Made by a program: the position numbers and the translations under genes
NCBI GenBank assembly: GCA_020724105.1
Contig: DYHP01000004.1
Span: 1-32,258, forward strand
Origin: Candidatus Methylomirabilis sp.
Lineage (GTDB): Bacteria > Patescibacteriota > Patescibacteriia > DYHP01
Direction: 5' to 3'
Length of the DNA: 32,258 bases
In this document: one piece after another, positions 1 to 31,364 of the stretch
Layout: each line of letters starts with the position of its first letter
Position numbering within the stretch: position 1 is the stretch's first letter
Notes under the pieces: model-generated
What the model was told of the DNA's origin: nothing
Database searches by the model: none
What the model saw: only the letters and a program-made list of their open reading frames with translations

Positions 1-2100
1 CAAGTCATAGACATTATTGGTTAAAGGATTGATGGAAGAGGCGAAAGTGGAGGTGGTGGTGTCGCCCTTGAGGGTGGTGTTGTTGACAAAAGCGGTGGTT
101 GAGGAATACAAACTTCTCCACGCCTGGCCATATGTTCCCAAATCATAAGTATTGTTGTCCGTGGCATAAAGATGCTGGAGGTGGGAAGTGGAAGAAGCGC
201 CTATTCCTCCAGACGGGTTTATCCAGCCGAGGATTGTTCCGCCTTCGTTTTGCCATTCAATAAGATTAGCAGATTGCGATGCGACTCGTCTGATGACAAT
301 GCCTTTGTAGTTTGAATTGGCAGTGTCAAGGGAAAGGCGGGTTTGGCCGAAAGTGGTGGAAGTGCCGACTCTTAATGCGGCGTTAACGGTAGTGGTGGTG
401 AAAACCGTGGTGTCGGTTTCAATGTTGGAAAGATAAAAATTATTCCATCTCAAAGCGGATGAACCCAAATCATAAGTGTCCGTGATTTTGGGCACGAAGG
501 ATGAACCAACGCGGCCGGTGAAAGTCAGGGTGTCTGAAGTGGCGTTGCCCAAAGTGGCATCGCCGTTAACAGTGATGCTGCCGGTAAAAGTGGAGTCGCC
601 CCCGACAGTAAGATGGCGGGTGATTGAAGCGTCATCGCCCACCGAGAGGTCGCGGCCCACGGAGAAATCATATGCCACGCCGCCAAAAGCGCCAGCAGTA
701 ACCGTTCCCTGAACCGCAGGCGTGCTGGCTTGTGTAACATAAGTGATGATTGGAGCGGCAGCGCCGGTTTGAATTCCCTTAACCGTGGCGCCTGTGAAAT
801 CTACCGTGCCGGTAACGCGGAGTTCCGGCGCCGAAAGAGCGCCAGTCATCACCAATTTTCCTCCCATTTCAAGGGAGCCGTCTTGCTTGACAGTGACGGC
901 GCCGAGTTTGAGGTCGCCATTTTCAATTTCCACCGGTCCTTTGATTCTTAATTTTTCCGCGCCAGCAATGATGCCGCCTTTGAGTTCTCCTTTGATGGTC
1001 AATTCGCGGTCAATGGTGGCGGAGTCAAGATTGAGTTTTGCGGCTTTGAGCAAAGTGATGATGTCGGCCGAGGTGAGTTTGGCCGCTTTTTCAATTTCTT
1101 TGATTTCTCTAATGATTATAGGAGCCGCCTTGCCTTCGGCAGATATGCCGCGCTCGCCTTCCGCCTCCGCCAAGGCTTCGGTGGACAAGTCGGCTTCGCC
1201 AACGCCGGGCAACGCCATTTCTGCGGGCGGTACGCCCTCCTCTGTTGAAACCTCCTCTGTTGAAACTTCGGCGGGCAAGCCGGGCGCGGTTTCTTCCGCG
1301 ATAGGACTAATAGGACTTATGGGTTTTTCTTTTGTAAACAGAGATACAACTTTGACTTGGATTTTAGATTTTAGATTTGAGGCAACATTGCGCAAGTGGA
1401 TGAGTCCCGCGGATGGCGCAGAGATTACTTTCTGGAGTCCGCCCTTTAGGGCGGTTTTAACAGATGTAGCCGCATCCTTTAAGCCGTGAGGGACACGCGG
1501 GCTAAAGCCCGCGGCTACATTAACTGCTCGCGACTTAAAAGTCGCGGCTACATTTTTGCCCGCCTGAAGACGGGACTCTATTTCTGAACCAACAAAAAGA
1601 ACACCGCTGCCGATGGATAATTCAACATGGCGGATGGAATCCTCGACTGTCTGCGCGAGATTTAAGATTTTAGATTTAAGATTAAATCTGTTAGTTGGCG
1701 GTTGTTGGTTGGCGGTTAGGGGTTGGTGATTGTTGGTTGATGGTTCGGCGGATTTTGCTTCTCCGCTGATTCTCTTCCCAAGCATTAAGAGAGAATCAAT
1801 CGCTCCCCTGCCGAATTCTTTAAACTTCTGTTTGACTAAACCCGCTCCTTCCTCCATCTCCATCCCCAGAGACAAGACCGCGTTGCCAAGGGTGAGTTCG
1901 GTCAGGCGCGCGGCGGATTCAACGCGTTGCGCCGCGGATTTGATAAGACCCATGGGGCCTATAGGACCTGTAGGACTTATAGGACTTGTTTCCGCAGCGG
2001 AAACCAAAAAAGGCGACAACAGAATAATCGCCGCAACTAATATGATTGTTGTTGCTTTGCAGATATTAAAATTGATATTAAAATTTTTTATTTTTTCCAT
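1..2100 (-). CDS. Large secreted/surface repeat protein; 5' complete, 3' end runs off the window
   Basis: My reverse-complement translation: ATG at 2100-2098, with the upstream 900 nt (2100-1201) checked codon by codon and the rest (1200-1) read once, showing no stop to position 1 (700 codons). It is not in the ORF track because it has no stop. The N-terminus MEKIKNFNINFNICKATTIILVAAIILLSPFLVSA resembles a signal peptide. The distal part is Gly/Thr-rich, with a (T/V)YDLG..W..Y motif recurring near 480-430, 150-100 and 18-1. The + ORFs 476-712, 785-1489 and 1730-2143 are antisense shadows. Confidence 0.75.
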   Translation of the reverse strand, partial: MEKIKNFNINFNICKATTIILVAAIILLSPFLVSAAETSPISPTGPIGPMGLIKSAAQRVESAARLTELTLGNAVLSLGMEMEEGAGLVKQKFKEFGRGAIDSLLMLGKRISGEAKSAEPSTNNHQPLTANQQPPTNRFNLKSKILNLAQTVEDSIRHVELSIGSGVLFVGSEIESRLQAGKNVAATFKSRAVNVAAGFSPRVPHGLKDAATSVKTALKGGLQKVISAPSAGLIHLRNVASNLKSKIQVKVVSLFTKEKPISPISPIAEETAPGLPAEVSTEEVSTEEGVPPAEMALPGVGEADLSTEALAEAEGERGISAEGKAAPIIIREIKEIEKAAKLTSADIITLLKAAKLNLDSATIDRELTIKGELKGGIIAGAEKLRIKGPVEIENGDLKLGAVTVKQDGSLEMGGKLVMTGALSAPELRVTGTVDFTGATVKGIQTGAAAPIITYVTQASTPAVQGTVTAGAFGGVAYDFSVGRDLSVGDDASITRHLTVGGDSTFTGSITVNGDATLGNATSDTLTFTGRVGSSFVPKITDTYDLGSSALRWNNFYLSNIETDTTVFTTTTVNAALRVGTSTTFGQTRLSLDTANSNYKGIVIRRVASQSANLIEWQNEGGTILGWINPSGGIGASSTSHLQHLYATDNNTYDLGTYGQAWRSLYSSTTAFVNNTTLKGDTTTSTFASSINPLTNNVYDL
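1301..1324. repeat. 9-mer family (ATAGGACTA/ATAGGACTT), in-frame in the surface protein
   Basis: ATAGGACTAATAGGACTTATGGGT, translated on the minus strand as PISPISPI. Confidence 0.7.
1658..1690. repeat. AGATTTA/AGATTTT heptamer array, in-frame in the surface protein
   Basis: GAGATTTAAGATTTTAGATTTAAGATTAAATCT, translated as NLKSKILNL. A shorter copy lies at 1361-1380. Confidence 0.7.
1944..1988. repeat. 9-mer family, in-frame just after the signal peptide of the surface protein
   Basis: ATAAGACCCATGGGGCCTATAGGACCTGTAGGACTTATAGGACTT, translated as SPISPTGPIGPMGLI. Confidence 0.75.
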
Positions 2101-2224: not shown

Positions 2225-2686
2225 CTACCTCAACATTTTATCCAATATTTTTCTCATCACCTTCACATCCGCCCGACCCTCTGTTTCTTTCATGGTCAAT
2301 CCGATAAAATACTGAAGCACCTCGACCTTGCCCGATTTATAATCTTGAACTTGTTTGGGATTGTTTTTAATTATGTTTTGGATTATTTCGGCAAGTTTCT
2401 CTTCGTCGTCCATTTTGCCCAGCCGTTTTTCTTCCATGATATGCGACGGGTCGGAGCCGGCCAAAAGCATTTCTTCAAGAACCGTCATTGCCGCCTGGCC
2501 TGAAATCTGATTTTGGTAAATTAATGTAATAAATTCGGCAAAATTTTCAGGCGAAATCCCCCTTCCCTCCCCCTTTATAAAGGGGGATAAGTGGGGGATT
2601 TTATGCTTTTCTATTAAACCGAATAATTTGGTTATTAACCAAGTTGATGTCAATCTAGCGAGTTTCTTTTTATGCTCTTCATTCAT
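2225..2686 (-). CDS. gatB: GatB C-terminal tail (GatB/YqeY-like) domain as a separate or frameshifted ORF
   Basis: The ORF-track protein 2225-2737 ends ...GKVEVLQYFIGLTMKETEGRADVKVMRKILDKMLR, typical of the GatB C-terminus. An internal ATG (MNEEHKKKLARL...) at 2686-2684 lies 11 nt after the TAA of the upstream gatB ORF. The frame differs from 2698-3843. Confidence 0.7.
   Translation of the reverse strand: MNEEHKKKLARLTSTWLITKLFGLIEKHKIPHLSPFIKGEGRGISPENFAEFITLIYQNQISGQAAMTVLEEMLLAGSDPSHIMEEKRLGKMDDEEKLAEIIQNIIKNNPKQVQDYKSGKVEVLQYFIGLTMKETEGRADVKVMRKILDKMLR
2554..2602 (-). repeat. Family C C-run/G-run hairpin (in-frame in the gatB C-terminal ORF)
   Basis: AAATCCCCCTTCCCTCCCCCTTTATAAAGGGGGATAAGTGGGGGATTT. 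It translates as IPHLSPFIKGEGRGIS. Confidence 0.7.
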
Positions 2687-2697
2687 AAAATGGGAAA

Positions 2698-3843
2698 TTA
2701 AATCTCTTCTTCGTGTTCCGGTTGTGATTTGACCCACTCATAAAGCTCTGATATCACTTTTTCGGTGTAATTGGCGAGGTGTAAGTCGTCGGTTAAAATT
2801 TTGGCGTCCGAAGCGTTAAAGCCGTATTCGTCTTGGAATCTCTGGCGTTTGGCAGCGGGCAATTCGGGAATTTTGTTTTTGAGCATCTCTCGAAATTCAA
2901 TCAAATTAAGCGGCGGGGTGTCGGGTTCGGGGAAGTAGCGGTAATCGTGCGATTCTTCCTTGATCCGCTGCTCCTCGGTGATGCCTTTTGTTTCATTCCA
3001 ACCGCGCGTTGATTGATACTTTGGCGGTTTGCCTTTTTCAAAAAGTTTTGTTTGGCGGATGATTTCATACTCCAGGGCGCGTTCGACGGCTTTGAAGGAA
3101 TTAAGATTTTTGATTTCGGTCTTCGGGTTAATAGGTCCTATGGGTCCAATAGGACTTATGGGTCCTAAAGGAGATAAAGAGATGTTGGCGTCAACTCGTA
3201 GATGGCCTTTTTCCATATCGGCGGAGGTAATGCCGAGATAGCGCATTATGAGCCGCAATTCCTGAAGAAAAATTTTCGCTTCCTGCGGGGAGCGGATGTC
3301 GGGCTCAGTAACGATTTCTAAAAGCGGGGTTCCTGAACGATTGAAATCAATGTATGTAGAAGCCATGTGCAAAAGCTTGGCCGCGTCTTCTTCAAGGTGG
3401 ACGCGCGCGAGGCGGATTTTAGTAGAAGCAGATTGACGCTGATTGAGTGCGCTGATTAACGCTGAAGAACTCCCTCCCTTACCCTCCCCCTTTTCAAGGG
3501 GGAGGGATGGGGTGGGGGATATTTCAAGATAACCTTGCCGCCCAATGGGTTTATCAAACTGTGAAATTTGGTAACCTTTGGGCAAGTCGGGGTAAAAATA
3601 ATTTTTGCGGTCGAATTTTGAAAAATCCAAAATCCCGCAATTTAAAGATAGTGCGGCGAGCACCGCATATTCTATCGCTCGCTTGTTTGGAACCGGCAAC
3701 ACGCCCGGATGACCCATGCAAACGGGGCAGATGGTGGTGTTGGGGGATTTGTCTTCGCCGGAATTGTCACAGGCGCAAAACATCTTAGATTTTGTTTTGA
3801 GTTGGACATGGATTTCTAATCCTATTATTGGAATATAATTCAT
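2698..3843 (-). CDS. gatB: Asp/Glu-tRNA amidotransferase subunit B, N-terminal catalytic part (ends early at TAA 2700-2698)
   Basis: MNYIPIIGLEIHVQLKTKSKMFCAC..., RVHLEEDAAKL and EIKNLNSFKAVERALEYEIIRQ are GatB hallmarks. It carries two in-frame repeat insertions (3470-3520 and 3129-3168). Confidence 0.85.
   Translation of the reverse strand: MNYIPIIGLEIHVQLKTKSKMFCACDNSGEDKSPNTTICPVCMGHPGVLPVPNKRAIEYAVLAALSLNCGILDFSKFDRKNYFYPDLPKGYQISQFDKPIGRQGYLEISPTPSLPLEKGEGKGGSSSALISALNQRQSASTKIRLARVHLEEDAAKLLHMASTYIDFNRSGTPLLEIVTEPDIRSPQEAKIFLQELRLIMRYLGITSADMEKGHLRVDANISLSPLGPISPIGPIGPINPKTEIKNLNSFKAVERALEYEIIRQTKLFEKGKPPKYQSTRGWNETKGITEEQRIKEESHDYRYFPEPDTPPLNLIEFREMLKNKIPELPAAKRQRFQDEYGFNASDAKILTDDLHLANYTEKVISELYEWVKSQPEHEEEI
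3129..3168. repeat. 9-mer family, in-frame in gatB
   Basis: TAATAGGTCCTATGGGTCCAATAGGACTTATGGGTCCTAA, translated as LGPISPIGPIGPIN just before the conserved EIKNLNSF block. Confidence 0.8.
3470..3520 (-). repeat. Family C hairpin (in-frame in the gatB N-terminal ORF)
   Basis: CTCCCTCCCTTACCCTCCCCCTTTTCAAGGGGGAGGGATGGGGTGGGGGAT. It translates as ISPTPSLPLEKGEGKGGS. Confidence 0.7.
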
Positions 3844-3848
3844 AAGAT

Positions 3849-3870
3849 AAATAGGACCAATGGGACTAAT
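3849..3870. repeat. 9-mer family, spacer between membrane-protein stop and gatB start
   Basis: AAATAGGACCAATGGGACTAAT fills the 22-bp spacer. Confidence 0.6.
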
Positions 3871-4794: not shown

Positions 4795-5538
4795 CTATTT
4801 ATAAATATAATTTTTTAATGTTTTTATCGCTTCTTCAACCATTTCTTTGGGCGGTTTTGACGCGTCAAGATAACAAACGTCGCTGCCGTATTTTTTTATT
4901 AAAAATTTGAACCATTGCGATTTGAATCTGGTGTGAATCTTTTTCTGAAACGCCAATTTTTCAAAAATCATCTGGTCATGCTTTCCAACGCGTTTTCGAA
5001 GGCGCGCCATAGCAATCTCCGGTTTGATGTCGGCAATAAACAAAACATCGGGCGACCAGCTTAGAGCCAATGAATTTCCTTCAAATTTTATAACTTTTTT
5101 TATGGAAATTTTTCCGTTTTGAATCGGCTGATAAATCAGCGAGGTGGCAACGCCTCTGTCTTGAATTATTATTTTTCCCATTTTGAGCGCGGGAATCAAA
5201 ATTCTGCGGTATAAAACCGCGCGGTCGATTGAAAACGCTTGCGCGGTCATCTCGGCGGAATATTTTTCCGCCGCGCTGTCGTGAATCAATTCCTGCCTAA
5301 TTGCTTCGCCGACCCAAACGGAAGTCGGTTCCGCCGACAAAATGACATCCGCTTCAAGAACTTTGTGAAGTTCGGGGTAAGTTTTGTGTTTTTTCCAATA
5401 ATCTTTCAAATCAAAAATTTTCAGGTTACTTTTTTTGAACCATTCCGACACGCCGGCAATTATCGTGCTTTTGCCCGAACCGTCGATGCCGTCGATCATG
5501 ATAAATAAACCCGTGTACTTATTCCTGCTTTTTGACAT
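4795..5538 (-). CDS. tmk: Thymidylate (dTMP) kinase-like
   Basis: P-loop IDGIDGSGKST near the N-terminus and overall dTMP-kinase-like layout. Confidence 0.7.
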   Translation of the reverse strand: MSKSRNKYTGLFIMIDGIDGSGKSTIIAGVSEWFKKSNLKIFDLKDYWKKHKTYPELHKVLEADVILSAEPTSVWVGEAIRQELIHDSAAEKYSAEMTAQAFSIDRAVLYRRILIPALKMGKIIIQDRGVATSLIYQPIQNGKISIKKVIKFEGNSLALSWSPDVLFIADIKPEIAMARLRKRVGKHDQMIFEKLAFQKKIHTRFKSQWFKFLIKKYGSDVCYLDASKPPKEMVEEAIKTLKNYIYK

Positions 5539-5572: not shown

Positions 5573-5622
5573 CATAAAACCTATAGGACCTTATAAGACC
5601 TTTAGGACTTATAGGACTAATA
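5573..5622. repeat. 9-mer family, dut-tmk spacer
   Basis: CATAAAACC TATAGGACC TTATAAGAC CTTTAGGAC TTATAGGAC TAATA. It overlaps the dut stop. Confidence 0.8.
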
Positions 5623-6051
5623 AAAACCGGTAGAGCCGATGCCGCCGCGCGAATTATTTTTATTTTCTTTCGTCTCTTCCAACTCGGCTCTTTCTATTTT
5701 CACCAGAATCGCCTGGGCGAGCCGCTCCCCTCTTTTTATTTCCGCTTCTTTGTCGCTGAAATTAAAAAGTTCAAGTTTTATTTCATCGTCCGGTCCGCAA
5801 TAATCTTGATCCAAAATCCCCACGCAATTCGCCAAAGTCAGTCCCTTTTTGACGGGCAAACTGCTGCGCGGAGCGAGCATTAGCATGAAACCGGGCGGAA
5901 CTTCAACGATTAAATTCGCCGGCGCGATTTTAATTTCTTTCGGCTTTATAACAATGTCTTCGCGGGAATATAAATCAAACGCGACAGAACCCGAAGTTTG
6001 GTATTGAGGGGCCGGCAAAGAGGGATCGATAAGGTGGATTTTTAGTTTCAT
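5617..6051 (-). CDS. dut: dUTP diphosphatase
   Basis: 144 aa with dUTPase motifs (AFDLYS, PRSSL, GILDQDY, GGIGSTG). Confidence 0.8.
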   Translation of the reverse strand: MKLKIHLIDPSLPAPQYQTSGSVAFDLYSREDIVIKPKEIKIAPANLIVEVPPGFMLMLAPRSSLPVKKGLTLANCVGILDQDYCGPDDEIKLELFNFSDKEAEIKRGERLAQAILVKIERAELEETKENKNNSRGGIGSTGFY

Positions 6052-6056
6052 AAACA

Positions 6057-6140
6057 GGTCTTATAAGCCTGCCCCGTAGTTCCCGACTTGTCGGGATACT
6101 GCGGGGTCCTATTGGTCTTATGGGCCTCATGGGACTGATA
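6057..6140. repeat. 9-mer family flanking a GC hairpin, rplA-dut spacer
   Basis: AGGTCTTATAAGCC, then the hairpin CCCCG..TCCCGAC-TT-GTCGGGA..CGGGG, then TCCTATTGGTCTTATGGGCCTCATGGGACTGATA. Confidence 0.7.
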
Positions 6141-7284: not shown

Positions 7285-7292
7285 AAATTTCT

Positions 7293-7337
7293 GATAGGAC
7301 TGATAAGTCCAATAAGACCAACGGGTCTCATAGGATT
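7293..7337. repeat. 9-mer family, nusG-rplK spacer
   Basis: GATAGGACTGATAAGTCCAATAAGACCAACGGGTCTCATAGGATT. Confidence 0.75.
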
Positions 7338-7909: not shown

Positions 7910-7926
7910 ATAAGTCCTATAAGACG
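7910..7926. repeat. 9-mer family, secE-nusG spacer
   Basis: ATAAGTCCTATAAGACG overlaps the secE stop. Confidence 0.55.
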
Positions 7927-9394: not shown

Positions 9395-9447
9395 GAATAG
9401 GACAAATAAGTCCAAGCAGTCCGATAGGACGAATGGAAGGAATGGGA
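9395..9447. repeat. 9-mer family, miaB-miaA spacer
   Basis: GAATAGGACAAATAAGTCCAAGCAGTCCGATAGGACGAATGGAAGGAATGGGA fills the spacer. Confidence 0.75.
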
Positions 9448-11958: not shown

Positions 11959-11998
11959 AATAGGACCAAATAAGTCCGATAGTCCCAATTGGACTTAT
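11959..11998. repeat. 9-mer family at the hup stop
   Basis: AATAGGACCAAATAAGTCCGATAGTCCCAATTGGACTTAT. Confidence 0.75.
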
Positions 11999-13957: not shown

Positions 13958-13982
13958 ATACTACAATATTGCTTACACTATT

Positions 13983-14354
13983 CTATTCTTCTTTCTCTTT
14001 CTTATTCTTCTGCCCCGCGACTTCGCCGATGACGCATTTGCCGACCAATCTCGCGCCCGCCTCGATTGCCAGCACTTGGGCGTTAATGTCGCCGGTAATT
14101 TCAGCCGTCGGACCAATCTCGACTTTTTCGGCGACGCTTATGTCGCCCTTGACATAACCGGCGATGGTCGCGTTGCGCGCGGCGATATTTGCCTGAATCG
14201 CGGCGTTTTCGCCGATGAGAATATCGGCGGTCGTTTCAATGTTCCCGACAACCTCGCCTTCGATAACCACCCTGCCGGCGCTTTTAAACTCGCCTTCAAG
14301 GCGAACCCCTTGGGCTATAATCGTATCTCCCCCCTCGGATCCTTTGCTAAACAT
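13983..14354 (-). CDS. Bactofilin-family cytoskeletal protein
   Basis: Repetitive beta-helix pattern (VRLEGEFKSAGRVVIEGEVVGNIETTADILIGENAAIQANI...VEIGPTAEITGDI). I prefer the ATG at 14354; the track TTG start lies in a heptamer repeat. Confidence 0.78.
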   Translation of the reverse strand: MFSKGSEGGDTIIAQGVRLEGEFKSAGRVVIEGEVVGNIETTADILIGENAAIQANIAARNATIAGYVKGDISVAEKVEIGPTAEITGDINAQVLAIEAGARLVGKCVIGEVAGQKNKKEKEE

Positions 14355-16907: not shown

Positions 16908-18434
16908 ATGGAAATCTTAATCGTCTTAATACTGGCCGCGGCCTGCGTCGGCGGTTTTTTGGGTTATTTAATCAGAAGCGAGGTGGCTAAAAGAAGGGCG
17001 GCGAGCGCCGAGGCGCGCGCGGGAAAAATCATAAGCGACGCCAAAACTCGAGCCCAGGAATTTTTAATAAGAACAAAAGAAAAAGGGCTGCAAATCATTG
17101 AGGAAGCCAAGAAAGAAGAAACCGAGAGAAGAAAAACATTGCTTGAACACGAAAAAAGATTGGAAAAAAGAGAATCGCTCTTTGACCAAAAACTTTTGGA
17201 ATCCCAGGAAAAGCAGCAAAAACTGCAGGACAAACTGCGCGAAATCGAGGAGATAAAATTAAAAATAAACCAATTAAAAGACCGAATATTGGGGGAATTG
17301 CAAAGGATTTCATCGCTTAGCGTGGAGGAGGCCAAGCAAGAAATTTTGAAACGCGTGGAAGACGACGTGAAAGACGAAGCGCTTTCAAGAATCAGGAAAC
17401 TTGAACAGACCGCGGCGGAAGAACTTGAAAACAAAACAAAAGAACTGATTGGCGATATCTTGCAAAGAGTGGCGATTTCGCACGCTGTGGAAATCACCAC
17501 CACCAGCGTTAATTTGCCCAACGACGAAATGAAAGGAAGAATTATCGGCAAAGAAGGCAGAAACATCAGGACCATAGAACAATTAACCGGCACCGAACTT
17601 ATTATTGACGAAACGCCGAACACAATAACCGTTTCAAGTTTCTCCCCCATCCGCCGCCAAATCGCCAAACGGGCGCTCGACAAACTCATTGCCGACGGCA
17701 GAATCCAGCCGGCGCGCATTGAAGAAGCGATTGACATCTCCAAAAAAGAATTGGCGATAGAAATTAAAAAAGCCGGCGAAGACACTTTGTATTCTTTGGG
17801 GCTTGAAATCGCGGGATACGACCCAAAGCTCATCCAAATCTTAGGCAGATTGAAATTCAGGACAAGTTACGGACAAAATGTTTTGCAGCACTCAATCGAA
17901 GTGGCGTACTTGTCCGCGCTTTTGGCCCAAGAATTGGGGCTCAACGCTTCATTGGCGAAAAAAGGCGGTTTGTTCCATGACGTCGGCAAGGCGGTTGACC
18001 AGGAAGTGCAGGGAACTCATCCTGAAATCGGCTATAATATTTTGAAAAAATTCGGCCTTCCCGAAGACGTCGCTTATTGCGCCTTGGGACATCATGAAGA
18101 CAAGCCAAAAACCATTGAAGCGATATTGGTGAAAACCGCCGATGCCATATCGGGCGCGAGGCCGGGCGCGCGCAAAGAAACGCTTGAACAATACATCCAA
18201 AGGTTGGAAGATTTGGAAAAAGTCGCCACCGGTTTTTCGGGCGTGGAAAAAGCCTACGCCATCCAAGCCGGCCGAGAAATCAGAGTTTTCGTTAAACCCG
18301 ACCAAATCGACGATTTGTCGGCGTTTAATTTGGCTCGCGACATTGCCAAACAAATAGAAACGGAATTAAGATACCCGGGCGAAATCAAGGTGACGGTCAT
18401 CAGGGAAACCCGCGCCATTGAATACGCGAGATAA
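16908..18434 (+). CDS. rny: Ribonuclease Y
   Basis: N-terminal TM helix, coiled-coil, KH domain (GRIIGKEGRNIRTIE) and HD domain (HSIEVA...LFHDVGKA...GHH). Confidence 0.93.
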   Translation: MEILIVLILAAACVGGFLGYLIRSEVAKRRAASAEARAGKIISDAKTRAQEFLIRTKEKGLQIIEEAKKEETERRKTLLEHEKRLEKRESLFDQKLLESQEKQQKLQDKLREIEEIKLKINQLKDRILGELQRISSLSVEEAKQEILKRVEDDVKDEALSRIRKLEQTAAEELENKTKELIGDILQRVAISHAVEITTTSVNLPNDEMKGRIIGKEGRNIRTIEQLTGTELIIDETPNTITVSSFSPIRRQIAKRALDKLIADGRIQPARIEEAIDISKKELAIEIKKAGEDTLYSLGLEIAGYDPKLIQILGRLKFRTSYGQNVLQHSIEVAYLSALLAQELGLNASLAKKGGLFHDVGKAVDQEVQGTHPEIGYNILKKFGLPEDVAYCALGHHEDKPKTIEAILVKTADAISGARPGARKETLEQYIQRLEDLEKVATGFSGVEKAYAIQAGREIRVFVKPDQIDDLSAFNLARDIAKQIETELRYPGEIKVTVIRETRAIEYAR

Positions 18435-18484
18435 TAAGACCTTTAGGACCTATAGGACCCATTAGTCCGATTGGACTCATAAGA
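18434..18484. repeat. 9-mer family, rny-ymdB spacer
   Basis: ATAAGACCTTTAGGACCTATAGGACCCATTAGTCCGATTGGACTCATAAG. Confidence 0.8.
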
Positions 18485-18492
18485 TTTAATTT

Positions 18493-22450: not shown

Positions 22451-22527
22451 ATCCTATAAGTCCTATAGGACCTATAAGTCCTATGTGTCCTATAAGTCCT
22501 ATAAGTCCTATAGGACTTATAGGCCCG
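22451..22527. repeat. Tandem array of about 8 units of the 9-mer TCCTATAAG/TCCTATAGG
   Basis: TCCTATAAG TCCTATAGG ACCTATAAG TCCTATGTG TCCTATAAG TCCTATAAG TCCTATAGG ACTTATAGG. It contains the perfect 24-bp palindrome CTATAAGTCCTATAGGACTTATAG and overlaps the rpoC stop codon. Confidence 0.9.
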
Positions 22528-25500
22528 ATTTATAACCGGTTCCGGTCGGAATCAATCTGCCGATGATGACATTTTCCTTCAAACCTTCAAGTTTGTCAAG
22601 GCGGCCGGTTGTCGCGGCGTTAATCAAAACGCGGGCGGTTTCCTGGAACGAAGCAGCTGATAAAAAGCTCATTGACGAGAGCGAAACGCGACTGATGCCC
22701 ATAAACAAATCCTTGGATGTCGCCTTTTTACCGCCGCTTTTCGCCATTTTCTCGTTCTCTTCTTCATAATACCAGCGCTCGACAATCTCGCCGGGCAACA
22801 TTTCAGTATCTCCCGGATCCTCAATTAACACGCGGGAAAACATTTGTTTTATGATTACCTCGATATGCTTGTCGTTTAATCTCTGACCTTGTGAACAATA
22901 AATTTTTTGGATGTTTTGGAGAATATAGCGTTGCGTCGCTTCCTTGCTTTTGAAATGATAGAGTTCTTGCAAATCCAAACTGCCTTCGGTCAAGGGATCG
23001 CCGGCCGTAACATATTCGCCATCCTTGACATGCAAGACATAGCCGGCCGGAATGATAAATTCCTTGACGATTTTCCCCTGCCAAGTCACTTTGACGATTT
23101 TGTCGCTTAGGGAGACCGCGCCCGATTTTTTGGCAACGACAAACTTACCATCTTCGCGCTCGATTAAAACCTCACCTTCCTTGATTTTCCCGCCGTCTTT
23201 TGCTCTGACTTTGTCTTTTGCGCCGAAGCGGTACGAAAATTCTTCGCTTCCTTCTTTTGACACTTCAACGATTCTCTGGGTTAAAACCGTACCCTTGTGA
23301 GCCTTGTCAATGTCTTTCACCTTGACTTCGCCGTCCGTGTCCGCGGTTATGGCGCGGTTTTTCGGCGGACGCGCTTCAAAAAGTTCTTCAACGCGAGGCA
23401 AACCTTGGGTAATGTCGAGCCCGGCCACGCCGCCGGTATGAAACGTTCTCATGGTAAGCTGAGTGCCTGGCTCGCCGATTGATTGGGCGGCGATAATGCC
23501 GACTGGCGCGCCTTCTTTGACAATCTGGTTATAAGCCAAATCATGGCCGTAGCATTTGGCGCAAACGCCTTTTTGGGATTTACAGCTTAAAACGCTCCTG
23601 ACTTTAGATTCTTTAATCTTGTGAGCGGCGAGTTCGCGGGCGATTTTGTGAGTAATCAACTCCCCCTTTTTCAACAATATTTTATTATTAACATCTTTCA
23701 GGTCTTGGGCTAAGAATCTGCCGACGAGCCTCTCAAAAAAACTCATGCCCAAATCGTTACTTTCTTCGGCGGTAATGAATATGCCGTCAGACGTCCCGCA
23801 ATCGTCCATTCTGATAATTATATCCTGTGAAACATCAACCAAACGCCTGGTTAAATAACCGGATGAAGCAGTGCGGACTGCGGTATCCGCCAAGCCTTTT
23901 CTCGTGCCGTGAGTTGAAATGAAATATTCCAAAACATCCAACCCTTCCTTAAAACTACGCTTGACCGGCAACTCAATAACGTTGCCGGCGGGATTAACCA
24001 CCAAACCCTTCATGCCCATCATCTGGGTGAGCTGCCCCCAGCTGCCGCGCGCCCCGGAATCAATCATGCTGTAGACCGAACCGCCTTTGTCCAATTTTTC
24101 CTTGCAGAGCTGGGTTATTCTGTCTTTGGTGGCGTCCCAAATGCCGATGATTTTGCTGTACTTTTCCTTAAAAGTCAAAAGCCCTTCCTCGTAAAGCGAC
24201 TCAATCCCGGCCACTTGTTTGTTGGCTTCTGTTATTAATTCGTTCTTTTCGGGCAAATCGGGAACCTCTTCCAAACTCCAGGTGTAACCAGATTTGGTGA
24301 TGTAGTAAAAGCCCGTTTCCTTGATGTCGTCCAAAATCTTAGCCGTCGCTTCGGGACCGTAAAATTCAAGACACATCCTGATGATTTCGCCTAACTTTTT
24401 GACATTTAGCGCCTCATTTTTGAAAGGTATTTCGGCCGGCAATCTTTGCCAGAAAATAACGCGGCCGACCGTGGTGTCCGTAATTTTCCCCCTGAATCTC
24501 ACTTTTATCGGTTCGTGCAAGGTAATTTTGCCAAGTTCATAAACCATTAGCGCCTCTTTCTCGTCGGCAAATGATTTGGGCTTGTCGCGATTTTTGCCCC
24601 ATGCTCCCAAAGTCAAAAAGTAACAGCCCCAGGCAATGTCTTTGTTTGGCGTGGCAATAGGCTGGCCCGTGCCCGGCTTTAACAAATTGCGGACGGAAAG
24701 CATGCGTTCGGCGGCCTCTTTATTGGCTTCCTCGGTGAGAGGAACGTGAACAGCCATCTGATCGCCGTCAAAGTCCGCGTTATAAGCAACGCAGACCATC
24801 GGATGGATTTGAATCGCTTTGCCTTCCACAAGCACCGGCTGAAAGGCCTGGATGCCCAAACGATGGAGCGTCGGGGCGCGATTGAGCATCACGTAGGCGT
24901 TCTTGATAATGTCTTCCAAAATATCCCAAACCTCCGGTCTGTCGCTTTCAATGAAACGATTGGCGCTTTTAATGTTGTGGACGAAGTCGGCGAGGATTAA
25001 TTTACTGATAAGAAAAGGCCTGAAAAGCTCAAGCGCCATTCTTTTCGGCAGACCGCATTGGTGCATTTTGAGACTAGGATTGACGACAATGACGCTGCGA
25101 CCGGAGTAATCAACCCGTTTGCCCAAAAGATTTTGGCGGAAACGGCCCTGCTTGCCTTTCAAGATGTCGGCGAGCGACCTTAATTCGTGTTTCGCTCCCG
25201 CGCCTGCCGCTCCTTTGGTTTGGCGGGCGCTGTTGTCAATTAAAGCGTCAACCGCCTCCTGCATCATTCTTCTTTCGTTTCGGCAAATAACCTCTGGCGC
25301 GTTCAACTCCGTCAATCTTTTCAAACGATTGTTTCTGTTTATAATGCGGCGGTATAAATCGTTTAAATCAGAAGTGGCGTAACGTCCGCCGTCAAGCGCC
25401 ACCATGGGCCTTAAATCCGGCGGAATGACGGGCACATTCTTCAAAATCATCCATTCGGGCCTGATGTTTTGTTTTTTTAAACTCTTTAAAAGTTTCAGGC

Positions 25501-26377
25501 GGCGAATAATTTTGTGGCAGCGGGAACCGGTTGATTCTTTTAGTTCCTCTTCCAATTCCGGAATAATTTTGGCGAAATCAATTTTCTTAAGCAACCTTTC
25601 AATCGCCGACGCGCCGATGTCGGCGTCAAAAATATGGCCGTATCTTAAAGACAATTCATAATAGGCATTTTCACTTAAAATCGCTTTTATTACCAAGTTC
25701 TTCAGTTCTCTTTCGGTTGCTTTGTAATCATCCTCGAGTTTTTGTATTTTTCCGAGTTGCGTGACGGCGATTTCTTTCGCTTTTTCCGGCATTTGTTTTA
25801 AATTTTCCGAAGTGACATAAGACGGGATTACCACCTCACTCATTCCCCGCTTCTCCAGCGTTTGTTTCAGTTCGGCGATGACGCCTTTTTGCTTTGCTCT
25901 GTATTCTTTTTTCAAATTATCAAGCATTTCGTTTTTCGCTTCTTCGTCTACGTCCGTAACGATAAAATCAGCGAAATAAAGAACTTTTTCAAGCGATTGG
26001 ATTGAAATATCCAAGCACAAGCCGATGCGCGACGGAACGCTGCGCAAAAACCAAATATGGGAAACCGGCGACGCCAATTCTATATGACCCATTCTTTCGC
26101 GCCTGACCAGCGCCTGAGCGACCTCCACGCCGCACTTATCGCAAATGATTCCCTTGTATTTTATTTTTTTATACTTGCCGCAATAACATTCCCAATCTTT
26201 GGTCGGACCGAAAATGCGTTCGTCAAAAAGGCCGTCCTTTTCGGGTTTCTGGGTTCGATAATTAATGGTTTCGGGTTTCGTAATTTCGCCGTAAGACCAG
26301 CTTAAAATCGTTTCGGGCGAAGCGATTTTTAGCCTCAAGGCGTCAAAATCGTTTATTTGGGAAAGATTTATAGACAT
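22517..26377 (-). CDS. rpoC: DNA-directed RNA polymerase subunit beta'
   Basis: 1286 aa with a zinc-binding CYCGKYK..CDKCGVE motif and the NADFDGD catalytic motif. Confidence 0.97.
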   Translation of the reverse strand: MSINLSQINDFDALRLKIASPETILSWSYGEITKPETINYRTQKPEKDGLFDERIFGPTKDWECYCGKYKKIKYKGIICDKCGVEVAQALVRRERMGHIELASPVSHIWFLRSVPSRIGLCLDISIQSLEKVLYFADFIVTDVDEEAKNEMLDNLKKEYRAKQKGVIAELKQTLEKRGMSEVVIPSYVTSENLKQMPEKAKEIAVTQLGKIQKLEDDYKATERELKNLVIKAILSENAYYELSLRYGHIFDADIGASAIERLLKKIDFAKIIPELEEELKESTGSRCHKIIRRLKLLKSLKKQNIRPEWMILKNVPVIPPDLRPMVALDGGRYATSDLNDLYRRIINRNNRLKRLTELNAPEVICRNERRMMQEAVDALIDNSARQTKGAAGAGAKHELRSLADILKGKQGRFRQNLLGKRVDYSGRSVIVVNPSLKMHQCGLPKRMALELFRPFLISKLILADFVHNIKSANRFIESDRPEVWDILEDIIKNAYVMLNRAPTLHRLGIQAFQPVLVEGKAIQIHPMVCVAYNADFDGDQMAVHVPLTEEANKEAAERMLSVRNLLKPGTGQPIATPNKDIAWGCYFLTLGAWGKNRDKPKSFADEKEALMVYELGKITLHEPIKVRFRGKITDTTVGRVIFWQRLPAEIPFKNEALNVKKLGEIIRMCLEFYGPEATAKILDDIKETGFYYITKSGYTWSLEEVPDLPEKNELITEANKQVAGIESLYEEGLLTFKEKYSKIIGIWDATKDRITQLCKEKLDKGGSVYSMIDSGARGSWGQLTQMMGMKGLVVNPAGNVIELPVKRSFKEGLDVLEYFISTHGTRKGLADTAVRTASSGYLTRRLVDVSQDIIIRMDDCGTSDGIFITAEESNDLGMSFFERLVGRFLAQDLKDVNNKILLKKGELITHKIARELAAHKIKESKVRSVLSCKSQKGVCAKCYGHDLAYNQIVKEGAPVGIIAAQSIGEPGTQLTMRTFHTGGVAGLDITQGLPRVEELFEARPPKNRAITADTDGEVKVKDIDKAHKGTVLTQRIVEVSKEGSEEFSYRFGAKDKVRAKDGGKIKEGEVLIEREDGKFVVAKKSGAVSLSDKIVKVTWQGKIVKEFIIPAGYVLHVKDGEYVTAGDPLTEGSLDLQELYHFKSKEATQRYILQNIQKIYCSQGQRLNDKHIEVIIKQMFSRVLIEDPGDTEMLPGEIVERWYYEEENEKMAKSGGKKATSKDLFMGISRVSLSSMSFLSAASFQETARVLINAATTGRLDKLEGLKENVIIGRLIPTGTGYKSGL

Positions 26378-31319: not shown

Positions 31320-31364
31320 ATAAGTCCTATAAGTCTCCTATAAGTCCTATAGGTCTTATAGGTT
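31320..31364. repeat. 9-mer family, rnj-trpS spacer
   Basis: ATAAGTCCTATAAGTCTCCTATAAGTCCTATAGGTCTTATAGGTT. Confidence 0.8.

Follow-up and report, generated by a model that had tools for sequence, protein, structure and literature searches.

Tandem arrays of a single 9-base unit occur both between genes and, in frame, within genes of a patescibacterium, and the copies within genes are probably those of a selfish repeat that spans several phyla, is associated with a small gene cassette, and is tolerated and read through where it falls into loops and linkers of proteins. The DNA analysed here, referred to as the window, is the whole of contig DYHP01000004.1 (C11; 32,258 nucleotides) of assembly GCA_020724105.1, Candidatus Methylomirabilis sp., which belongs to the Patescibacteria or candidate phyla radiation (CPR) and has a genome of 776 kb (0.78 Mb) in 53 contigs (43.5 % G+C, 97.6 % complete). 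The repeat unit is ATARGNCYT, which is its own reverse complement except for the middle base. One of its arrays lies within gatB, and arrays of the same unit repeatedly bracket or interrupt small genes of the TIGR04258 ‘four-helix-bundle suffix’ type in independent genomes.

Arrays of period 9 were detected with Tandem Repeats Finder (TRF), and three of those in the window lie within open reading frames (ORFs) of the minus strand. The features concerned are as follows.

2698-3843, minus strand: gatB N-terminal ORF of 381 aa, with GatB_N (PF02934; E 1.7e-106, 355.9 bits), hosting an array as well as a GC-hairpin insert at approximately 3470-3520
2225-2737, minus strand: gatB C-terminal ORF of 170 aa, with GatB_Yqey (PF02637; 123.3 bits), set off from the former by a one-base shift near 2698-2720
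3131-3172, minus strand: nonamer array in gatB, approximately 4.5 units, reading as LGPISPIGPIGPI, in the loop of residues 226-241 between two beta strands of GatB_N
1-2100, minus strand: ORF of a secreted or surface protein, truncated by the end of the contig, with two arrays inside
1943-1987, minus strand: nonamer array in the secreted protein, right behind the signal peptide, reading as SPISPTGPIGPMGL
1301-1324, minus strand: second nonamer array in the secreted protein, within an acidic linker, reading as PISPISP

The initial annotation of this DNA had placed the three arrays at 3129-3168, 1944-1988 and 1301-1324 and had read them in the register ATA, AGT or GGN, CCN, i.e. as Ile-Gly/Ser-Pro; the arrays are confirmed with an offset of a few bases, and the ORF translations of all three agree with the register. 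Across 3131-3172 the letters of the gatB array are ATAGGTCCT ATGGGTCCA ATAGGACTT ATGGGTCCT AAAGGA, over which the minus-strand ORF reads ...SLSPLGPISPIGPIGPINPK..., and the ORF of the secreted protein, which has no Pfam match, reads ...AETSPISPTGPIGPMGLIKS... over its first array and ...KEKPISPISPIAE... over its second. The bookkeeping of frames was likewise correct, in that each strand offers one frame closed by TAA or TAG, one that spells I-G/S-P and one that spells (K/R)-(S/T)-Y. It was also claimed that the arrays share a strand and a frame, and all three do read P-I-(S/G) on the minus strand; however, the agreement in strand carries little information because the unit is its own reverse complement, and the plus strand is also open over the same bases (ORFs 1730-2143 and 3029-3241, plus strand, reading I/M-G-P/L).

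The arrays form a genuine family in this genome. Those scoring at least 16 number 30 in the whole genome vs 0 in a shuffled genome, and a 27-nt pattern of three units, allowing up to three mismatches, has 46 and 49 matches on the two strands vs 0 for the reversed control. By their head-to-tail arrangement of a 5-11-nt unit, above chance, the arrays count as long-unit simple sequence repeats (SSRs), and they vary in length and consist of degenerate units. Most are non-coding (more than 20 are intergenic). The seven clearly intragenic arrays that read P-I-(S/G) are located in gatB, in the secreted protein (two arrays), in the tails of a type IV coupling-protein-like ATPase (at its C terminus) and of a protein with a MopE motif, and in linkers of two proteins of unknown family, and one further array, in a zinc phospholipase-C-like protein, reads K-S/T-D. 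In all, seven to eight coding copies in six to seven proteins are free of stops and multiples of three, as is the case for the palindromic elements of Rickettsia discussed below, and every one of the coding copies sits within a loop, a linker or a tail.

The DNA unit dictates both the peptide and the choice of codons, because the codons of the coding arrays match the unit and not the codon usage of the genome; AGT makes up 17 of 18 Ser codons (10 % genome-wide), CCT 24 of 31 Pro codons (17 %) and ATA 13 of 25 Ile codons (18 %). The potential to form RNA hairpins is low in the three coding copies (z-scores of -1.8, -1.5 and +0.2) vs -35 kcal/mol and a z-score of -7.9 for a 75-base intergenic array; such weak hairpins are as expected if the coding copies are short, decayed survivors. 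As to frames, the I-G/S-P reading occurs in seven arrays of this genome vs one in another frame (one-sided p ~0.035), a figure that is suggestive only. Among 120 loci from other phyla, which had been chosen solely for array content, arrays with at least 100 open codons on each side fall into the I-G-P class in eight cases vs the R-T-Y class in seven, and any preference for a frame is weak.

These data bear on the view taken in the initial annotation, that P-I-(S/G) is itself a selected module, useful as an extended proline-rich spacer of the polyproline-II or collagen-like kind, which we now regard as very unlikely. The view draws on the I-G/S-P register of seven of the eight clearly intragenic arrays, on an excess of P-I-S units over the reverse-complement reading G-L-I, and on the secreted or surface nature of several hosts, where such linkers are common; in addition, the tandem repeats of Borgs are reported to be under selection to create disordered regions (bioRxiv 10.1101/2022.05.18.492195). 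Against it, the codon usage is that of the DNA unit, most copies are non-coding, the two open frames are used nearly alike (8 vs 7) across phyla, and one array in this genome reads K-S/T-D. Ser moreover stands in for Gly at 18 of 28 first positions (17 of them as AGT) and no host protein has a Pfam collagen match, findings that also led us to reject a collagen-like repeat (PF01391). Equal use of the other stop-free frames, which the initial annotation had considered incompatible with its reading, is thus approached across phyla (8 vs 7) and not in this genome (7:1). What endures of the idea that an intergenic repeat doubles as a coding module is the existence of one family that is shared between spacers and in-frame positions; a role of its own for the coding copies is not supported, given codons that follow the unit, their confinement to loops, linkers and tails, the loss of most of the hairpin potential and the nearly even use of frames elsewhere.

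The family's link to a gene rests on a comparison of genomes. There are four PF05635-like genes in the genome of the window, one of which (C14:500-850) is a TIGR04258 gene that is frameshifted and internally deleted, with approximately 75 central residues missing. Its C-terminal fragment scores 68.8 bits (E 2.8e-19; 68.3 bits for C14:678-815, above the TIGR04258 cut-off), and over the N-terminal 50 residues it shares 66 % identity with a protein of Pyrinomonadaceae (Acidobacteriota); the similarity suggests that the gene was acquired by horizontal transfer. Arrays of ATARGNCYT flank this gene on both sides (C14:434-514 and 852-910). In five array-rich, unrelated genomes, each with hundreds of matches to the pattern, three of eight TIGR04258-type genes are bracketed on both sides by nonamer arrays (L169, L177 and L190), and at 5 of the 120 loci (L040, L070, L082, L116 and L125) an array lies inside or abuts a gene of this type. 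Intact cassettes with nonamer arrays are present in Acidobacteriota, Bacteroidota, Cloacimonadota and Desulfobacterota. Among 41 class-level relatives, TIGR04258 was found only in the genome of the window, which is also the sole genome there with many arrays. The link emerged solely with TIGR04258-type queries; a phmmer search with a classic PF05635 protein gave almost nothing near arrays. Searches of the literature for TIGR04258 or ‘four helix bundle suffix’ returned nothing relevant and did not yield the association between arrays and gene, and searches with strings of the array sequence returned no match.

The remaining PF05635 genes (23S rRNA intervening-sequence protein or Avd-like) have repeats of their own. 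Those at C37:6444-6752, C7:7797-8090 and C53:3405-3590 each have heptamer arrays on both sides, the heptamers being GGGTATA and GCGTTTA, AATTTTC/AATTTTT, and CAAGATA, respectively. Other 7-9-mers likewise enclose 21 of the 22 classic PF05635 genes in four unrelated genomes, and for most of the bracketed genes the downstream array is the reverse complement of the upstream one.

Outside this genome, the exact 27-nt pattern was found in at least 120 contigs of GTDB species genomes and in 20 viral contigs, whereas fewer than one match is expected by chance in the 596 Gb covered. Among the matches listed are Bacteroidota, Acidobacteriota, Planctomycetota, Verrucomicrobiota, Nitrospirota, Chlorobiota, Cloacimonadota and Desulfobacterota, as well as others, and approximately 90 % of the arrays at the 120 loci lie outside long ORFs. 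Two relatives from the same family have no match to the pattern, and just 2 of 40 relatives exceed a single match. In a different CPR family, an array (L019; G027:C67, ~13980-14030) lies inside a long ORF, with 499 codons upstream and 287 downstream, and reads in the other open frame as YKADKSYRTYTSDKLDK. Some of the viral matches are true collagen-like genes of the GPIGPTGPT kind, distinct from the nonamer arrays, and one viral contig of 34 kb (L149/L150; IMGVR_UViG_3300035660_000048) has at least seven nonamer arrays in 13 kb; phage-like DNA may act as a carrier or spreader of the repeat.

This distribution is also what must be set against the notion that the arrays are home-grown, having arisen in situ by slippage or hairpin-primed expansion of a proto-unit with no cassette involved, such that the unit shared across phyla would reflect convergence on a slippage-prone, self-complementary, TA-rich sequence. 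The degenerate, length-variable arrays fit that notion, as does the location of most of them far from any cassette; SSRs with units of 5-11 nt are described as scattered across prokaryotes, with multiples of three found in coding regions (Mrazek 2007, as relayed in PMC4679880), and the orthologue from genome G001 has the proto-unit GGA CCA TTT exactly at the site of the gatB array. However, the identical 9-nt unit is found in many phyla and absent from relatives in the same family, it co-locates strongly with one gene family in independent genomes, and about half of the approximately 32 arrays in the genome are on the window contig, which is 4 % of the genome. Convergence also fails to explain the exact unit on both flanks of TIGR04258 genes. 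On balance, a home-grown origin is unlikely.

The array in gatB is the copy for which the protein context is clearest. The two gatB ORFs contain the GatB_N domain and the YqeY tail domain and keep the conserved residues of GatB; the 381-aa ORF alone retains 85 of the 85 columns that are invariant in an alignment of 50 sequences. Based on an orthologue alignment and on comparison with solved chains, the array occupies the loop preceding EIKNLNSF, as had been noted initially, and amounts to a seven-residue insertion relative to GatB of Thermotoga (3al0_B) and Aquifex (3h0l_B). From DANIS to K-T-E-I-K-N(LNSF) the loop is 18 residues long in this genome, 10-11 in two relatives of the same family and 16-21 in most of 120 homologues, and a few homologues, P0056 and P0112 among them, have inserts of approximately 50 residues at this loop. 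In an AlphaFold2 model of GatB (mean predicted local distance difference test (pLDDT) 84, predicted template modelling score (pTM) 0.86), the array loop, residues 226-241, connects strands 216-225 and 242-247, and the pLDDT drops there to 69-79. The loop preceding KTEIKN is a general soft spot and a recurrent landing site, because other CPR bacteria (L011 of G040; P0057) carry a different repeat there, namely an insert, SPSPRMGEGGGEG or SPSPLVGEGEGEG, of the C-run/G-run hairpin type. In the closest orthologue (G001), GGA CCA TTT AAT CCC stands opposite the last unit GGA CCT ATT AAC CCG of the present array, and so, judging from this single relative, a near-unit already in place may have been the point from which the gatB array grew or at which it was captured. 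In the strand that precedes the loop, residue 217 (window 3192-3194), the Cys of RCDANIS, is Val here, whereas at least 90 % of 50 homologues, and 11 of 11 aligned relatives, have the Cys.

Is gatB nonetheless a living gene? The N-terminal ORF ends in ...HEEEI*, and the tail domain resumes in another frame (DLISHFMNEEHKKKLARL...); with one extra base near GAAGAAGAG|ATT the fused protein would be collinear with its relatives, and so the break would either stem from a sequencing error or be genuine, with translation restarting at an ATG 11 nt downstream. The gene is single-copy and gatA is intact (595 bits). No glutaminyl- or asparaginyl-tRNA synthetase (GlnRS, AsnRS) was found at family cut-off in this nearly complete genome, the best scores being 77 bits vs 426 for GlnRS and 110 vs 343 for AsnRS. 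Dependence on GatCAB is expected because neither synthetase reaches the cut-off, gatB is single-copy and gatA is intact; by this reasoning from gene content, GatCAB should be essential to the cell and gatB functional. The arrays inside genes are likely translated, and the predicted tryptic peptide that bears on this point in GatB is VDANISLSPLGPISPIGPIGPINPK.

The contrary position is that the coding arrays are artefacts of a misassembled metagenome bin, or that gatB is a pseudogene accumulating junk, with nothing being translated. The frameshift in gatB, its three different repeat inserts, the loss of the near-invariant Cys of RCDANIS and the origin of the genome from a bin of 53 contigs are all in keeping with it. 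However, arrays of 24-45 bp made of non-identical units are below read length, orthologues match both flanks collinearly and in frame, the 381-aa ORF has lost none of its invariant columns and scores 356 bits to GatB_N, and gatA is intact in a genome that is 97.6 % complete and yielded no GlnRS or AsnRS. Misassembly is unlikely in view of the short, heterogeneous arrays and their collinear in-frame flanks, and the position as a whole is very improbable.

The scenario that best accounts for these observations, and that we consider likely, has the repeat family carried by, or travelling with, a small cassette built around a TIGR04258-type four-helix-bundle gene, with arrays forming the flanks and an internal segment of that cassette. 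From such a cassette-like source, arrays would have colonized some 30 sites in the 0.78-Mb genome, either by template switching or slippage seeded at microhomology or by a protein-assisted process, and a few would have landed or grown within coding sequence. Selection would then have retained only arrays that are multiples of 9 bp (and hence of three), that are read without stops and that fall where a loop, linker or tail tolerates them, and the ribosome would read the retained arrays, mostly as (P-I-S/G)n. In GatB, approximately three extra units (eight residues) would extend a beta-hairpin loop at the surface, one of naturally varying length, and leave the flanking conserved strands undisturbed.

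Several points weigh against this reading of the coding arrays as a tolerated, cassette-associated selfish repeat. The cassette copy in this genome is broken, and hence cannot be behind any current spread; in other genomes, the majority of arrays lie at a distance from any cassette; and two relatives, G027 and G013, have a few arrays and yet no TIGR04258 match. To our knowledge, the four-helix-bundle family has no enzymatic activity, and a causal role for it would be a case of guilt by association. Tolerance alone does not account for the 7:1 bias in frames in this genome. No insertion junction or target-site duplication was identified, the closest match to GatB among 5.8 billion proteins being just 64 % identical, and gatB itself, being split by a frameshift and having two other inserts besides the array, could be decaying.

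A more far-reaching proposal, which we offer tentatively and consider somewhat doubtful, is that the arrays serve as mobile arms for a selfish element distributed across phyla, the sole gene of which, of TIGR04258 type, would encode a protein that is related to Avd and to the proteins of 23S intervening sequences and that might recognize array DNA or RNA hairpins and promote their copying to stop codons, start codons and gene interiors. Such a partnership would resemble that between repetitive extragenic palindromic (REP) sequences and REP-associated tyrosine transposases (RAYTs), with a non-transposase as the partner, and the rewritten surface loops of essential enzymes such as GatB would be its by-product.

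The intergenic arrays, which are the bulk of the family, are situated mostly in short spacers between co-directional genes, beginning 0-6 bases from a stop codon, and their ends often coincide with the ATG of the next gene. Those in the window, listed without strand, are as follows.

3851-3866: short array taking up the spacer between the upstream stop and the start codon of gatB
5579-5623: intergenic array between the co-directional genes 4795-5538 and 5617-6051, overlapping the stop codon of ORF 5617-6051
6056-6140: two short arrays (6056-6070 and 6105-6140) that flank a GC palindrome in a single operon spacer
7290-7335: array occupying nearly the whole spacer, from the upstream stop to no more than 6 bases from the next start
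7910-7925: short intergenic array of two units
9397-9430: degenerate intergenic array with co-directional neighbours
11970-11998: array between convergent genes, adjoining the stop codon of the minus-strand gene
18434-18488: array beginning at the stop codon of gene 16908-18434 and ending 5 bases short of the next start codon
19329-19356: array 3 bases past a stop codon and before a terminator-like hairpin
22452-22526: the largest array of the window, approximately eight units, overlapping the stop of gene 22517-26377, with a near-perfect RNA hairpin (the 75-base array of z-score -7.9 above)
31320-31363: intergenic array with co-directional neighbours

The GC-rich palindrome between the two short arrays, gccccgtagttcccgacttgtcgggatactgcgggg at 6071-6104, makes that spacer a composite of two repeat types. 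Elsewhere in the genome, four arrays of the ribosomal-protein operon on contig C8 (9621-9660, 12562-12596, 14372-14424 and 14847-14872) fill the spacers preceding the genes for L22, L5, L18 and S5, the last of them being located between rplR and rpsE. Each array in this operon closes with the ATG that starts the next gene (CTT ATG, i.e. the I-G-P register with M in place of I), so that the arrays supply a start codon together with an open upstream frame and are bound to confuse gene callers. The array on C30 is non-coding, and that at C15:2226, whose coding status is ambiguous, probably represents the leader of a HIT-family gene or extends that gene at its N-terminal end. A function of the arrays as donors of Shine-Dalgarno sequences, by way of the AGGA in the unit, was considered and seems unlikely, as the distance that separates the arrays from the ATG (3 or 12 nt) is unfavourable.

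If the coding arrays are indeed read-through copies of a selfish repeat, the phenomenon of selfish DNA being read through in housekeeping genes, known from Rickettsia, would extend to tiny tandem units and to the reduced genomes of the CPR, in which any residue added to essential enzymes, GatB for instance, stands out. A functional clue would also follow, in that the nonamer brackets TIGR04258-type genes in at least four phyla and the family is large and uncharacterized. The link to the cassette would bear on how dispersed short-unit repeats and rRNA intervening sequences arose, for both of which an explanation has so far been lacking. For annotation, arrays that provide stops, starts and open frames on both strands give rise to false ORFs and to uncertain gene boundaries.

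Among known repeat systems, the nearest in behaviour are the Rickettsia palindromic elements (RPEs), which are single elements of approximately 100-150 bp that encode a conserved peptide and are reported to be restricted to Rickettsia (Ogata et al. 2000, via PMC10969869). Like RPEs as portrayed there, the nonamer arrays are a dispersed, hairpin-capable family that is found in intergenic positions as well as in frame in unrelated housekeeping genes, where it is read through with the fold intact. Unlike them, the present family consists of tandem 9-nt units over 24-87 bp, occurs in many phyla, is open to reading from both strands and has a link to a four-helix-bundle gene. With its short tandem units, its CPR lineage and a peptide that depends on frame, it works like an RPE and is not a member of that family.

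A second likeness is to long SSRs, for which units of 5-11 nt are described and whose presence in genes goes with unit lengths divisible by three (Mrazek 2007, via PMC4679880), and to the heptamer repeats of Xanthomonas and Nostoc (PMC4692102). Both they and the nonamer arrays are short-unit arrays enriched between co-directional genes and near starts and stops (PMC4679880; PMC4692102). However, long SSRs are portrayed as lineage-specific and are explained by slippage or G-quadruplexes, whereas the nonamer is palindromic, shared across phyla and tied to a cassette. In Geobacter bemidjiensis and G. metallireducens, multicopy sequences include intergenic direct repeats of 6-42 nt, nonanucleotides among them, and there is precedent in these organisms for repeats inserted in genes without a frameshift (PMC2996986). 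The Geobacter nonanucleotides differ in consensus (WCCTCTGTG and MMRGGGATR) and were therefore rejected as members of the same family, and, unlike the arrays described here, no associated gene has been reported for them (PMC2996986).

With REP sequences, their REPIN forms and RAYTs, the nonamer family shares scattered short palindromic copies in intergenic positions, a few of which flank one small gene; the flanked gene here, in contrast, encodes a four-helix bundle with no known catalytic motif and not a Y1 transposase. Membership in the REP/RAYT system was rejected, as the two Y1_Tnp (PF01797) genes of the genome, IS200/RAYT-like and located at C36:16817-17140 and C34:14228-14461, have no nonamer array within 500 bp. 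The C36 gene is flanked instead by a different hairpin (GGAGGGCTCAAGCCCTCC), and of its GGAGGGCTCAAGCCCTCCGCTACA hairpins a pair lies to one side and a single copy to the other, which is the classic REP/RAYT layout; this copy may be the source of another palindromic repeat family in the genome. Mycobacterial interspersed repetitive units (MIRUs), which Supply and colleagues reportedly described in 1997, are tandem repeats in operon spacers that are said to overlap the upstream stop and the downstream start. The nonamer arrays similarly fill operon spacers and overlap stop and start codons, although MIRU units are said to measure 46-101 bp, to be restricted to mycobacteria and not to be palindromic nonamers. 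Finally, the 23S rRNA genes of Leptospira and Coxiella contain intervening sequences with an ORF of PF05635 (S23p/IVP, Avd-like). Here too a small four-helix-bundle ORF lies between inverted repeat arms, as in the TIGR04258-type cassettes; the latter, however, are located outside rRNA, their arms are tandem arrays of a short unit, and solo arrays are dispersed around the genome, including within protein genes.

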